From Candidatus Hydrogenedentota bacterium (lineage in GTDB: Bacteria > Hydrogenedentota > Hydrogenedentia > Hydrogenedentales > SLHB01): a DNA stretch of 24,177 nucleotides. Below, piece by piece: positions 6,692 through 15,143 of this stretch. The number at the start of each line of letters is the position of its first letter. The stretch's first letter is position 1. The stretch spans positions 1-24,177 of the forward strand of contig JARKSN010000224.1 of the NCBI GenBank assembly GCA_029974275.1, given 5' to 3'. The notes under the pieces were generated by a model that saw nothing but the letters and a program-made list of their open reading frames with translations, was not told the DNA's origin and did not search any database. The position numbers and the translations under genes are program-made.

Positions 6692-6736
6692 TGGTGGGCG
6701 ACACAGGGCTCGAACCTGTGACCTCCGCCGTGTGAA
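6692..6736 (-). repeat. att site: displaced 3' half of tRNA-Val (anticodon loop to CCA)
   Basis: TGGTGGGCGACACAGGGCTCGAACCTGTGACCTCCGCCGTGTGAA is identical to 15099-15143 (45/45). Confidence 0.97.
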
Positions 6737-6854
6737 ATTTAAAACGTATGTTTTTCTGTGTCATCCGTGGTGTGTAGTAGAACACAAAACACCCATAAAC
6801 ACGGGCTATTGTGTATTCTGTTGATTTTCGAAATATTCTGTGATACTCTCCAGC

Positions 6855-6875
6855 TGGTACACCGATGGTACACAG
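6855..6875 (+). promoter_or_regulatory. Putative integrase arm-type binding sites (tandem pair)
   Basis: TGGTACACCGA-TGGTACACAG with an 11-bp period. The same pair recurs at 15012-15032. Confidence 0.75.
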
Positions 6876-6905
6876 AAAAGTCAACTGCACTATGGAGGTA
6901 TGCGG

Positions 6906-8219
6906 ATGCCGATGGCAAGGATCGGGCAACGGCTGATTGATGCAATCAGAAAGAACCCTCCGAAGGTGCGCGTCGATTACTACGATTCCGATGTTTCGGG
7001 GTTTCACCTGAGAGCATCCGGTTCCGGAGCTATCACGTACTTCGTGAAGTATCGCAACGATGTGGGCGTCCAAAAACGCATGCGCCTGGGATCGGCTTCT
7101 TCTCTGACCGTCGTACAGGCCCGCGACCTTGCCAAGCTGCGGCTCGCCGAAGTGGCCCAGGGCCAAGACCCGGCGGCGGCGCGACAGGCCGCACGGCGCG
7201 ATCCGGGAGTCCAGACGCTGCGGCAATTCGTGGAAGGCCCATATCGCGAGATTTGGTTATCACAGCGAAAATCAGGCAACGAGGTATATAAGCGCCTAAT
7301 GGTTGTGTTCGCGGAGTTTCTCGACAAGCCGCTGACCGACCTCAAACTTGGAGAATTGGAGCGGTGGCGGCGGGCACGTCGCGAAAAAGGGCGCAAGCCC
7401 GCGACCGTAAACAGAGACATCACATCTCTCAAGAGCGCGCTGAATCGAGCATGTGATTGGGGATACATCGAAAAGAACCCGATCGCTAAACTAAAACCAG
7501 AGCGCACGGACCGGTTCCCCGTCGTGCGATTCCTGTCGCCCGCCGAAGAAGATCGACTAATGGCCGCGCTGGACGCCCGCGAGGAACGCCTACGCCAAGA
7601 GCGTGATTCGGCGAACGCATGGCGGCGCGAGCGCGGATACCAGGAATTGCTAGACCTCCGGGCGGTTCCGTTTGCCGACCTTCTCAAGGTGGTAGTGCTC
7701 GTTTCGCTGAATACGGGATGCCGTAGAAACGAGGTATTTTCGTTGCTGTGGCAGGACGTTGACCTTGATCGCGGTTTCCTGTCCGTGCGCGGAGAGTCCG
7801 CGAAGTCTGGCGCAACGAGGCATGTTCCGCTGAACCAATGCCTTCGCGAGGCCCTGGCCGATTGGAAGACGCAGACCACCGGGCAAGGCGGGCTCGTGTT
7901 CCCATCGCCGAAGACAGGCGGAAAGCTGGACAATCTGAATTCCTCGTGGAGGGCGCTACTCAAAGATGCACAGATCGAGCATTTCCGCTGGCACGATCAA
8001 AGGCATCATTTCGCTAGTAAACTCGTCATGGCGGGCGCGAGTCTGAATAGCGTACGCGCACTACTTGGCCATGCAAGTATGACGATGACCGTTCGATATG
8101 CGCATTTGAGCAACGAGCATTTGATCGGAGTTGTCGAGCTGCTTGACAGGCCCGCGAACGTCGTGGCGTTCACGGGGCGGGCCCAGGAACCCGCAGCAAC
8201 CACGGGAGAAAAGGCGTGA
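6906..8219 (+). CDS. int: Tyrosine recombinase/integrase with N-terminal arm-binding domain
   Basis: GGAGG at 6894-6898, ATG at 6906 (alternatives 6900, 6912). Catalytic motifs TGCRRNE, AKSG, WHDQRH, LLGH and VRYAH. N-terminal DSDVSGFHLR..YFVKYR..RMRLG resembles a P4-type arm-binding domain. Confidence 0.95.
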   Translation: MPMARIGQRLIDAIRKNPPKVRVDYYDSDVSGFHLRASGSGAITYFVKYRNDVGVQKRMRLGSASSLTVVQARDLAKLRLAEVAQGQDPAAARQAARRDPGVQTLRQFVEGPYREIWLSQRKSGNEVYKRLMVVFAEFLDKPLTDLKLGELERWRRARREKGRKPATVNRDITSLKSALNRACDWGYIEKNPIAKLKPERTDRFPVVRFLSPAEEDRLMAALDAREERLRQERDSANAWRRERGYQELLDLRAVPFADLLKVVVLVSLNTGCRRNEVFSLLWQDVDLDRGFLSVRGESAKSGATRHVPLNQCLREALADWKTQTTGQGGLVFPSPKTGGKLDNLNSSWRALLKDAQIEHFRWHDQRHHFASKLVMAGASLNSVRALLGHASMTMTVRYAHLSNEHLIGVVELLDRPANVVAFTGRAQEPAATTGEKA

Positions 8220-8731
8220 GCATCAACGCTGTCGAGAATGTCATTCACACGATACGCGAGCAACGTGTCATCTTGGACGCCGACCTCGCGCGGTTGTACG
8301 GAACCACTACCAAGGCCCTCAATCAGGCTGTCAAGCGCAACCCGGAACGCTTCCCTGAAGATTTTGCGTTCGTCCTTACAGGACAAGAGGTTACGGTTTT
8401 GAGGTCACAAATTGTGACCGCAAACAGCACCGGACGGGGTGGTCGGCGCACCCTTCCTTATGTCTTCACGGAGCACGGCGCGATCATGGCGGCCAACGTC
8501 CTGAACTCGCCCAGGGCCGTGGAAATGTCCGTGTACGTTGTGCGGGCGTTCATCCGCATGCGCGAGGTCATCGGCCAGAGCAAGGAACTGGCGGCCCGTC
8601 TCGGGGCCGTAGAGAAGCGCCTTGCCGAGCACGACGATTCCATCAAGGCCCTTGTCCAGGCCGTCCGCGCACTCATGGCACCGCCCGAGAAGCCCAAACG
8701 GCGGATCGGGTTCAAGAAGGACGAATCTTGA
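8216..8731 (+). CDS. ORF6N domain DNA-binding protein (antirepressor-type)
   Basis: [57 protein letters not shown] and C-terminal [8 protein letters not shown]. GTG start overlaps the int stop (GTGA). Confidence 0.9.
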   Translation: [171 protein letters not shown]

Positions 8732-8767
8732 CCGCGTAGGATGCCCGCCACCCAACCACCTCCACCG

Positions 8768-8795
8768 ACCCGCCCCCAGGGCGGGTTTTTCTGTT
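8768..8795 (+). terminator. Intrinsic terminator after int-ORF6N
   Basis: ACCCGCCC-CCA-GGGCGGGT hairpin followed by TTTTCTGTT. Confidence 0.75.
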
Positions 8796-8800
8796 AAAGT

Positions 8801-8849
8801 AAAAAAAAGTTCTTGACATATGGCCAGCGCATAGCTATACTATGGCCAG
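8801..8849 (+). promoter_or_regulatory. Sigma70-type promoter with A-tract and two operator-like repeats
   Basis: A8 tract at 8801-8808, TTGACA 8813-8818, 17-bp spacer, TATACT 8836-8841. TATGGCCAG at 8819-8827 and 8841-8849. AGGAGG at 8851-8856. Confidence 0.85.
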
Positions 8850-8864
8850 AAGGAGGCGGAAAAC

Positions 8865-13994: not shown

Positions 13995-14030
13995 GGGCGG
14001 GTTGCGAAAGTGGCCCGCCCTTGGTGTTTC
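13995..14030 (+). terminator. Hairpin/terminator after capsid gene
   Basis: GGGCGGGTTGC-GAAA-GTGGCCCGCCC (11 bp with three G-U pairs, GNRA loop) followed by TTGGTGTTTC, an imperfect U-tail. Confidence 0.55.
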
Positions 14031-14037
14031 TGTGGCA

Positions 14038-14066
14038 TTGACACCGCGAACACAACCATGTACTCT
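14038..14066 (+). promoter_or_regulatory. Sigma70-type promoter of cargo gene
   Basis: TTGACA 14038-14043, 17-bp spacer, TACTCT 14061-14066. Confidence 0.7.
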
Positions 14067-14135
14067 ATATCTCAGAATCGGTCTGGGGTCGTGGCCTTGG
14101 ATCAAACGGGAGGGAACTCCCAAAAGGAGAAGAAG

Positions 14136-14705
14136 ATGACTACAGAAACGAGGATTGAAGAAATGGATGCAAAGAAATTCGCCAGACTCGAAGACCTAGC
14201 ACGACAACTCAACTCCAAGTCCGACACCCTCAACACGCTCATCCTTGAACTCGAAGACCGGTTGAACGCTACAAAGATCGGCGTGTCCGCGTGGCTGGAT
14301 GTTGAAATCCAACGAGAAGGGCCATACTCCCACGATGATGAACAGCGGAGAATGAGCGCTTACAGCATCGGATTTTGCCGGATGAAGAACGGCGAATGGC
14401 ACATCGCCACGCGAAAAGATTGCTGGTCTCTGAATTCCAATAACGAGTTCGAAGAGTATATCTACAGGGAAGAGCCAGTTCCCCTAACGTCAGCCCCTCG
14501 TGCTATCCGCGCCGACGCCGCGAGGTACTTTGACAGGCTCGTTGATGAGATATTCAAGAGGGCTGAAGCGTACATCGAGAATATCGACACAGCAAACCGA
14601 CTCATGGCGACCGATGGTCAAGAAGATGGGCAAAGCCGAAACCATCCACGAACAACGCCACTCGTAGACCACGAGGCAGTAAAGAAACTGTTCAAGACCA
14701 AGTAG
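14136..14705 (+). CDS. Hypothetical cargo protein (189 aa)
   Basis: AAGGAG RBS, ATG 14136. Own promoter and terminator. Visibly more A-rich than neighbouring genes. Confidence 0.75.
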   Translation: MTTETRIEEMDAKKFARLEDLARQLNSKSDTLNTLILELEDRLNATKIGVSAWLDVEIQREGPYSHDDEQRRMSAYSIGFCRMKNGEWHIATRKDCWSLNSNNEFEEYIYREEPVPLTSAPRAIRADAARYFDRLVDEIFKRAEAYIENIDTANRLMATDGQEDGQSRNHPRTTPLVDHEAVKKLFKTK

Positions 14706-14736
14706 CGAAACAGAACAGTGTAGTTCATGTAATCAC

Positions 14737-14780
14737 AGACGGCGGGATGGCCACGAACTTCCCGCCGTTTCTCTTTTCTG
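14737..14780 (+). terminator. Intrinsic terminator after cargo gene
   Basis: ACGGCGGGA-N12-TCCCGCCGT followed by TTCTCTTTTCT. Confidence 0.7.
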
Positions 14781-15011
14781 ACACTACCACCACCCGACCG
14801 GCCACACCGACGCGCTACGATGCCCGACACGGCGCGATCGGCGATATCGTCGAGGATGACACCACCCCCTCCCCTGCGTGCCCACGACTGCACACACAAT
14901 CGACCGCCACCCGGCCACCACCACCGGCTCTTTTTTTGACTGACGGCGAGACGCGACGCACGACGGCGCACGTCACCGACCACGACCGGAACCCGGCAAA
15001 CGTCCGTTTGT

Positions 15012-15032
15012 TGGTACACCGGTGGTACACCG
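15012..15032 (+). promoter_or_regulatory. Putative integrase arm-type binding sites (tandem pair)
   Basis: TGGTACACCGG-TGGTACACCG, matching 6855-6875. Confidence 0.75.
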
Positions 15033-15098
15033 AGGCTACGAAAAGGAGAAGGGCCAATAGCCCCGAATCCGGAACCTATTGACCCATAACACGTTAGG

Positions 15099-15143
15099 TG
15101 GTGGGCGACACAGGGCTCGAACCTGTGACCTCCGCCGTGTGAA
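15099..15143 (-). repeat. att site within the intact tRNA-Val
   Basis: Identical to 6692-6736. Confidence 0.97.

Follow-up and report, generated by a model that had tools for sequence, protein, structure and literature searches.

The described elements closest to the one analysed here are phiRv1 and phiRv2 of Mycobacterium tuberculosis, for which the published gene list gives an integrase, an excisionase, a primase, a terminase, a prohead protease and a capsid protein (PMC12268328). The terminase, protease and capsid genes carry the consecutive tags Rv1578c, Rv1577c and Rv1576c, and no portal, tail or lysis gene is named in that list (PMC12268328). phiRv2 is described as 10.8 kb long, inserted at a tRNA-Val gene and equipped with a tyrosine recombinase (PMC3986857), while an element of M. 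canettii is listed with an integrase, an excisionase, a primase, a prohead protease and a capsid protein (PMC3986857). SatelliteFinder classes phiRv-like elements as phage-inducible chromosomal islands (PICIs) (PMC10085698), and the Hatfull laboratory describes mycobacterial candidate PICIs by the combination of an integrase with a capsid gene (PMC10654092). Here, we analysed contig JARKSN010000224.1 (24,177 nucleotides, hereafter the window) from the 342-contig assembly GCA_029974275.1 of a Candidatus Hydrogenedentota bacterium, and found in it an 8.4-kb island at a tRNA-Val gene that encodes a small terminase subunit (TerS), a prohead protease and an HK97-fold major capsid protein (MCP), with no match to a large terminase subunit (TerL) or a portal among its open reading frames (ORFs). 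Judged by its gene content, we think it reasonably probable that the island represents a PICI-like satellite of phages, inserted in tRNA-Val.

As set out in the description of SatelliteFinder, the PICI core consists of an integrase, a regulator (alpA, merR or stl), a primase-replicase, a capsid morphogenesis function and terS, whereas tail, holin, portal and connector or adaptor genes are forbidden, and one component may be missing (Type B) (PMC10085698). The same source describes a common variant that has no identified primase-replicase and shows a tendency for terS to stand ahead of the capsid gene; it reports a prohead protease as only occasional in PICIs, gives their median size as 9.5 kb, and distinguishes capsid-forming PICIs (cf-PICIs) from them by TerL, portal, HNH and a head-tail adaptor or connector (PMC10085698). 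When the window element was compared with this published description, as opposed to the profiles of the tool itself, four of the five core functions were recognisable (integrase, capsid, terS and, as a candidate regulator, the AlpA-like protein), while the primase-replicase module was not. No match to a tail, holin, portal or connector gene was obtained in any of the 12 ORFs on the sense strand, five of them small and without a family, or of the 10 on the antisense strand. The size fits as well (8.4 kb against the median of 9.5 kb), and terS stands before the capsid gene as in the primase-less variant.

A bounded island with a three-gene head module

The island is delimited by a 50-nt direct repeat of 96% identity (6687-6736 and 15094-15143), of which both mismatches fall within the first five bases, leaving a perfect 45-nt repeat (6692-6736 = 15099-15143). 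The right copy is the 3' part of tRNA-Val(cac) on the minus strand, the sole tRNA gene in the window, and the start-to-start distance of the two copies is 8,407 bp. All credible genes between the repeats lie on the plus strand, among 12 sense ORFs that were assigned to families using Pfam, PHROGs and NCBIfam, with PADLOC for defence families (Table 1). The ten long antisense ORFs belong to no family and are the usual by-product of a G+C content of ~60%. Gaps of only 2 nt and 5 nt separate terS from the protease gene and the protease gene from the MCP gene, and 4-nt overlaps occur at four junctions (int/ORF6N, HTH/orf267, orf267/orf137 and orf137/orf191). Hence, the initial annotation, which had described perfect attachment (att) sites and intact, tightly packed ORFs with terS, protease and MCP genes contiguous, was accurate on each of these points.

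It was equally correct in stating that the island holds neither room for nor a remnant of TerL or portal. No large terminase or portal family matched any of the 12 sense or 10 antisense ORFs, PF20441 (large terminase) gave no match in the element, and no fragment of either gene was detected in any frame of it; as the largest ORF without a family encodes only 267 aa, there is no room for an intact TerL or portal. Upon searching the whole 342-contig assembly with PF03354, PF04860, PF05876 and PF05136, we obtained matches on other contigs only and none on the contig of the element. Connector, tail and lysis families were absent from all element ORFs in Pfam, PHROGs and NCBIfam, and neither an HNH nuclease nor a head-tail adaptor or connector was matched in these databases, divergent small proteins being possible.

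The three head genes that are present look functional from their sequences. The protease retains His59 and Ser106, which are invariant in an alignment with 11 relatives, and the MCP agrees with an alignment of 31 sequences at each of its 14 invariant columns, while 25 of the 26 that are nearly invariant are listed with an MCP residue. Residues 142-406 of the MCP match the solved 268-aa capsid chain 8gta_A (6.4e-38), and the N-terminal extension of ~140 aa that precedes them is presumed to be a delta/scaffold domain that is removed on maturation. The TerS of the element is the sole PF05119 match in the genome assembly. On the whole, the element has the appearance of an intact and complete island of the satellite type, with genes for a shell, for its maturation and for DNA recognition. 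As a terminator-like hairpin and a promoter-like site lie ahead of the ribbon-helix-helix (RHH) gene and a second terminator-like hairpin lies beyond the capsid gene, the genes from RHH to capsid likely form one operon.

Table 1. Features of the tRNA-Val island in window coordinates, with the matches or analyses on which each entry is based (HTH, helix-turn-helix).
Feature	Position	Strand	Evidence
Distal att site	6692..6736		perfect 45-nt copy of tRNA-Val 3' end
Tyrosine integrase with arm-binding N-domain	6840-8219	+	PF00589 1.5e-26, PF13356 3.8e-14, phrog_1 1.5e-60
ORF6N-domain protein	8216-8731	+	PF10543 9.7e-33, phrog_4792 2.1e-23, PADLOC PDC-S05 4.4e-50
Terminator-like hairpin	8767-8787	+	consensus scan only
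Promoter-like site TTGACA-17-TATACT (11/12, best in element)	8813-8841	+	consensus scan only
NikA-like RHH protein, first operon gene, putative regulator	8865-9431	+	PF21983 7.1e-11, residues 3-55
AlpA/excisionase-like HTH_17 protein, 72 aa	9527-9745	+	PF12728 1.8e-12, phrog_66 1.2e-07
orf267, putative replication initiator	9742-10545	+	winged-helix model; no Pfam family
Putative origin (iterons and AT-rich stretch) inside orf267	10048..10277		repeat and shuffle analysis
orf137, function unassigned	10542-10955	+	4-nt overlaps with neighbours
orf191, function unassigned	10952-11527	+	4-nt overlap with orf137
TerS, P27 family	11502-12029	+	PF05119 1.8e-16, phrog_83 1.7e-23, TIGR01558 47.5 bits (cut-off 45.6)
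HK97-type prohead serine protease (S78)	12032-12664	+	PF04586 2e-24, TIGR01543 1.9e-28
HK97-fold MCP	12670-13917	+	PF05065 3.9e-33, phrog_617 5.4e-74, TIGR01554 2e-25
Terminator-like hairpin, 12 pairs, 3' of capsid gene	13994-14021	+	consensus scan only
Accessory ORF, 189 aa, from ATG at 14136	14136..15082 region	+	no family
Accessory ORF, 111 aa	14747-15082	+	no family
tRNA-Val(cac), 3' 45 nt (15099-15143) = proximal att	15099-15175	-	tRNA call and repeat

The integrase probably starts at an internal ATG ~20 codons downstream of the ORF start, and the ATG at 11541 is the likely start of terS. Matches of the RHH protein to MobA/RelB-type RHH families in NCBIfam were weak and under the cut-off, while phrog_66, to which the HTH_17 protein belongs by its match, is annotated as 'excisionase and transcriptional regulator'. 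The products of orf137, orf191 and the two accessory ORFs (189 aa and 111 aa) matched no family over the cut-off in Pfam, NCBIfam, PADLOC or PHROGs, and protein language-model look-ups of the two accessory ORFs led to unnamed clusters only. The ORF6N protein may be an anti-repressor-like regulator, following the anti-repressor families in PHROGs, or a candidate defence gene, following its PADLOC assignment; an ORF6N gene also occupies the same position in the sibling island L206 (see below). Three further features lie just outside the element. Between the tRNA and a response-regulator gene, three tandem 17-nt units (ATATCGCGAATCGCGCCAT) occupy 15218-15270, and the ~130 nt at 15255-15385 show 74-85% identity to many places, often contig ends, in related genomes, a pattern suggestive of short repeats dispersed as a family through the lineage. 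On the other side, a 95-aa ORF at 6270-6557 encodes a protein that belongs to no family and whose C-terminal half is extremely lysine-rich.

A putative initiator on a shared backbone

We are fairly confident that orf267 encodes a replication initiator with the origin inside its own gene, because a predicted winged-helix fold, iterons and an AT-rich stretch occur together in it. Four palindromic iterons of ~19 nt start at 10048, 10121, 10168 and 10222, a number to be compared with 0.01 expected and reached in none of 100 shuffles. They are followed by a stretch (10241-10277) that is strikingly AT-rich for this genome, and iterons and AT-rich stretch alike fall in the linker-coding part of the gene. 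The structure predicted from an alignment of 32 homologues has a winged-helix N-domain at residues 10-130 (predicted local distance difference test score 95-98) and disorder towards the C-terminus. Exhaustive structural alignment of the model placed at the top the replication initiator of staphylococcal multiresistance plasmids (4pta_D; Z 8.7 over 95 residues, root-mean-square deviation 3.4), followed by Cdc6 (Z 8.4), winged-helix domains of ORC (7.5-7.7) and the DnaD N-domain (7.4). Language-model look-ups for the protein returned unnamed or winged-helix clusters only, and no primase or helicase domain was found in any element ORF by Pfam, PHROGs or NCBIfam. The arrangement resembles that of lambda O, where ori lies inside the O gene.

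The initiator links the element to a family of islands in its own phylum. Its N-domain has 50 homologues among 1.84 billion representative proteins, and the family is present in 22 of 135 genomes of the phylum, where it occurs in integrase islands. We fetched 14 sibling regions (L206-L219) from 13 genomes, most of them adjoining a tRNA gene, and annotated ten with Pfam. These ten are tRNA-linked islands with an integrase, the initiator and often an HTH_17 protein, and their cargo includes type I restriction-modification, YhcG nuclease, SocA/Panacea, RhuM and Sel1 repeats; for L206 the fetched region ends 3.3 kb past the initiator gene, so that its far end lies outside it. No match to the MCP, the protease or the TerS of the element was obtained in the 14 fetched regions. 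Since restriction or toxin-antitoxin cargo takes the place of head genes in the ten annotated siblings, the head module would seem to have been acquired, from a phage or a capsid-forming satellite, as opposed to being left over from a deletion. On the simplest reading of these gene contents, a terS-protease-MCP module was added to the integrase-initiator (int-rep) backbone of cargo islands and the element is a mosaic. The one-off deletion from a cf-PICI or prophage that the initial annotation had named as a refutation is accordingly not favoured, because the backbone relatives examined lack head genes; no close relative offered a direct test. With an initiator-with-internal-origin backbone common to 22 of 135 genomes, the picture that emerges is of a backbone that may swap between defence cargo and phage-hijacking modules.

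Capsid relatives, proposed life cycle and rival readings

Relatives of the capsid protein pointed to a layout that recurs elsewhere. The best non-self match of the MCP in a search of 5.8 billion proteins has 48% identity, and about two thirds of the 88 non-self matches are protease-capsid fusions of 550-710 aa. A scan of one genome per species gave 76 MCP loci, and 51 of them extended 4.5 kb or more upstream from the capsid gene. Large upstream ORFs were clustered, and for the two main clusters, Pfam annotation of two representatives each identified gpA-type terminases and lambda-type portals. Both terminase and portal were found at 28 of these 51 loci, one of the two at 14 (by crude ORF calling) and neither at nine, including the fragment L074. 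The remaining eight (L014, L028, L030, L039, L045, L057, L062 and L067) are small integrase elements that have no TerL and no portal, from hosts that include Verrucomicrobiia, Myxococcota, Saprospiraceae, Thermodesulfobacteriota, Burkholderiaceae and Gammaproteobacteria. Besides an integrase and a capsid protein that is mostly fused to the protease, they encode a replication protein of the helicase or initiator type and often HTH_17, some with a gpZ-like protein in addition, and five are bounded by tRNA-derived repeats 8.9-9.8 kb apart. Thus, the proposed search for the same gene order in other genomes did recover portal-less capsid elements from other phyla, with a small terminase in only two of the eight (Terminase_4 together with HNH in L039, the Nu1 kind in L057).

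When 153 capsid sequences were placed in a FastTree phylogeny, the rows in the satellite state were scattered among phage rows, and, counted on well-supported branches, the nine satellite-labelled rows require at least four changes of state. The window MCP pairs with L008 (Lysobacterales, next to tRNA-Phe, its context cut off), a join flagged as a meeting of long branches, and lies inside a supported group of eight rows that includes L058 and L082. Judged by their gene content, L082 and L058, found in Afipia and in a genome of the Hyphomicrobiaceae, appear to be minimal satellites of the capsid-forming kind. L058 (4173-14216) is a 10.0-kb element bounded by tRNA-Cys repeats with integrase, HNH, TerL, MCP and portal. 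L082 (3135-14304), on the 11-kb scale, has an integrase, an AAA_25 helicase, HNH, TerL, MCP, a gp6-like connector, an S78 protease and a portal, in an unusual order with TerL before the MCP and the portal last, and without a tRNA in the fetched locus. The capsid phylogeny that had been called for thus groups the element with capsid-forming look-alikes, although the long branches of the tree allow a coarse picture only. Together with this one, the eight comparable elements in other phyla suggest that the reduction of the head module does not reflect decay but a stable solution that recurs.

Candidate helpers at best are offered by other contigs of the same assembly. C161 carries an HK97-type head module with TerL, portal, S78 protease and MCP, further TerL, portal and MCP pieces lie on C255, C43 and C235, and lambda-type TerL and portals on C263, C172, C168 and C205. 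The recommended check for a co-resident HK97-like prophage was thereby answered in part, as HK97-type head genes exist on C161, a short contig whose membership in the organism is uncertain. BLAST found no paralogues of element proteins on contigs with phage genes except integrases. Independently of the element, the genome bin contains at least two phages, or mis-binned phage contigs, of the HK97 and lambda types.

On these grounds, we propose a life cycle in which infection by a helper, or induction of a resident prophage, would derepress the operon, and the integrase and the AlpA-like protein would excise the element. The winged-helix initiator would then bind the four iterons, open the AT-rich stretch and recruit the replication machinery of the host. 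The MCP, with its own scaffold-like N-domain, and the protease would build and mature small shells on the portal of the helper; in a less likely variant, the MCP would co-assemble with the helper capsid protein, as SaPIbov5 Ccm does. TerS would recognise the DNA of the element and recruit the large terminase of the helper, probably together with its HNH nuclease, and helper connectors and tails would complete the particles. For comparison, the genome of P4 is given as 11.6 kb, and both P4 and SaPI1 are known to have T=4 heads (PMC13669383). As 8.4 kb is less than the genome of P4, one copy of the element would fit a T=4 or smaller shell, while for EcCICFT073 the packaging of several units in larger heads has been discussed as an alternative (PMC6092414).

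Metagenomic data were used to follow the element beyond its assembly. Two studies, of wastewater and of an anaerobic digester, contributed three runs in which its sequence was present, with 0.68-0.91 of the sampled words. Contigs of the runs X1, X2, X4 and X6 were aligned to window positions 4000-18000, and were identical to the window where they covered it but broke at the repeats. Contig depth provided no usable evidence, with ~5.6-6.2 for the element and 8.1 for its flanks in X1. One record of X2 that joins 15176 to 6691 with 22 other letters between them (depth 22) was considered as a junction and rejected, as it reads as tandem tRNA genes of another organism. A diverged relative was seen on one low-depth contig of X6 (activated sludge, 2016), at ~84-93% identity over two aligned pieces; 11514-11918, that is, most of terS, is replaced by 83 nt, and the protease and capsid genes have no cover. 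Possibly, this variant represents a sibling of the element whose late module is a different one. Among 40 relatives searched at the DNA level, matches were limited to the tRNA, part of the int/ORF6N region and the response-regulator gene, whose orthologues in three relatives have no tRNA nearby and provide no usable synteny.

Several observations weigh against a PICI-like satellite with this life cycle. P27-type terminases usually work with an HNH protein, and no HNH family match was found in the element. No close relative of the MCP was found in the 5.8 billion proteins, in the order of the element itself, or in genome or viral contigs, and within that order an MCP relative occurs in only three of 132 other genomes, at 30-39% identity; therefore, neither selection on the head genes nor conservation of the layout is measurable. 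The contigs with candidate helper genes are short pieces of a 342-contig assembly that may or may not belong to the organism. As the MCP has no BLAST-detectable similarity to the MCPs of the co-assembled prophages, it may or may not be compatible with a borrowed portal. An empty site or a circular junction was not found in the contigs of the four metagenome runs, which can exclude neither, and the DNA search of 40 relatives offered no empty tRNA-Val site. Regarding replication, no PDB entry was matched by the orf267 model in Foldseek at E <= 0.001, Phage_rep_O was touched by only one of the 32 members of the initiator family (E 0.006), and the Z scores of the model are middling, such that a common fold alone could explain them. 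Finally, capsid proteins are described as normally co-evolving with the portal that nucleates them (10.1101/2025.02.15.638363), which makes assembly on a foreign portal the weakest link of the proposed mechanism.

Among the alternatives, we weighed an anti-phage island, whose head genes would have been captured mainly to poison or resize phage capsids and to divert terminase while the element spreads rarely or otherwise. The defence-type cargo of the ten annotated siblings (type I restriction, YhcG nuclease, SocA/Panacea) is in line with such a role, as are the match of the ORF6N gene beside the integrase to the PADLOC candidate PDC-S05 and the interference that known PICIs exert through capsid homologues (Ccm of SaPIbov5, cited in PMC6092414), while an RHH protein of the NikA/MobA kind as the first operon gene hints at another transfer route. 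Yet, a TerS, a protease that is catalytically intact by its conserved residues and an MCP with a scaffold-like N-domain exceed what interference needs, and the Pfam annotation of the element contains no relaxase or other conjugation gene. As known interfering satellites also use such genes for their own transfer, the two roles are compatible, and we regard a mainly defensive island as unlikely. Another alternative, a stranded remnant, in which a capsid-forming satellite or a small prophage would have shed its TerL, portal, HNH and connector genes and become immobile, appears more doubtful still. The well-supported eight-row group that joins the window MCP to L058 and L082, both of which have TerL and portal, speaks for it, and so do the lack of visible mobility in the metagenome contigs and the X6 variant with most of terS replaced, seen on its one low-depth contig. 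Against such decay stand the perfect att copies, the intact genes with 2-5-nt gaps or 4-nt overlaps, the lack of any TerL or portal fragment, the backbone relatives without head genes, which fit a gain better than a loss, and the independent recurrence of the same reduced layout in other phyla, with at least four changes of state in the tree.

A third possibility, an autonomous portal-less mini-virus with non-canonical packaging, seems very improbable to us. It takes its motivation from portal-less, integrase-bearing HK97-fold metagenomic genomes (<11.6 kb, 8.75 kb on average) that are described with integrase, RepA, helicase, MCP and scaffold and with no terminase, portal or tail, and for which a satellite life style is given as one hypothesis and a non-canonical reading is discussed as well (PMC13669383). 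The canonical small terminase of our element, however, only makes sense with TerL and portal supplied in trans, and we found no rolling-circle Rep by Pfam or structural alignment and no lysis or entry function. A complete or defective tailed prophage was rejected, with no tail, lysis, portal or TerL genes or remnants present and the junctions of the head module all measuring 2-5 nt.

We therefore retain the PICI-like satellite as the preferred reading, and add to it a broader proposal that we put forward tentatively, as possible but far from likely. An own shell, protease and DNA-recognition subunit, combined with a borrowed portal, motor, connectors and tail, could represent a functionally distinct, experimentally uncharacterised strategy that requires assembly of a satellite capsid on a foreign portal. 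Its origin could lie in repeated events, in many phyla, in which int-rep backbones unrelated to each other captured protease-MCP genes of phages, the backbone here being the defence-cargo islands of an uncultured phylum, in parallel to the tycheposons discussed below. The mechanistic question that this raises, namely whether a satellite capsid protein can nucleate on a helper portal given the co-evolution of capsids and portals, is made testable by the recurrence of portal-less capsid genes across phyla.

Comparison with described satellites

Compared by their published gene lists, phiRv1 and phiRv2 are elements of ~9-11 kb with the same gene set as the window element and no other virion genes. 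Their replication gene is a primase, in contrast to the winged-helix initiator with internal iterons found here, and their hosts are Actinobacteria, as opposed to Hydrogenedentota. The terminase Rv1578c is, we presume, a small, P27-type subunit. As elements with this gene set are already classed as PICIs, and as the PICI model includes capsid and terS, the suggestion in the initial annotation of an undescribed satellite type does not hold. Its placement of the element between capsid-less PICIs and cf-PICIs is apt for the gene content, though not as the definition of a new type. The accompanying view that classical PICIs carry only TerS and/or capsid-size redirectors was too narrow, as capsid-protein homologues are described in SaPIbov5, EcCICFT073 (c1499) and PmCI172 (PMC6092414). 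Small capsids have been observed for PmCI172, and the capsid protein of SaPIbov5 is cited as responsible for the small capsids of SaPI size (PMC6092414). SaPIbov5 (Ccm), EcCICFT073 (c1499/c1500) and PmCI172 resemble the element in having a capsid homologue without portal or motor, and differ from it in lacking the trio that a prohead protease and TerS complete.

The cf-PICIs, such as EcCIEDL933, share with the element an HK97 capsid of their own, a maturation protease and TerS on an island of the integrase/AlpA type, and the window MCP groups with the cf-PICI look-alikes L058 and L082; TerL, portal, HNH and adaptor or connector, by contrast, were not found in the element. A likeness of another kind is offered by the tycheposons of Prochlorococcus, of which 81 of 501 are reported to carry phage packaging genes (10.1101/2020.12.28.424599). 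There, too, one int-rep backbone is common to cargo islands and to a minority with packaging genes, as in the backbone family of the window element. The tycheposons, however, have either terS or MCP where the element has the terS-protease-MCP trio, and the integrase and replication families differ; hence, on this comparison of gene content, the likeness is one of organisation and not of family membership. Literature searches returned nothing on satellites in Hydrogenedentota, a name at which they were not aimed. Overall, the element is a further example of the known PICI-like, phiRv-type kind and not a new type. With it, the phiRv-type architecture, in which capsid, protease and TerS occur and portal and motor do not, reaches beyond Actinobacteria into a wastewater phylum that is uncultured.

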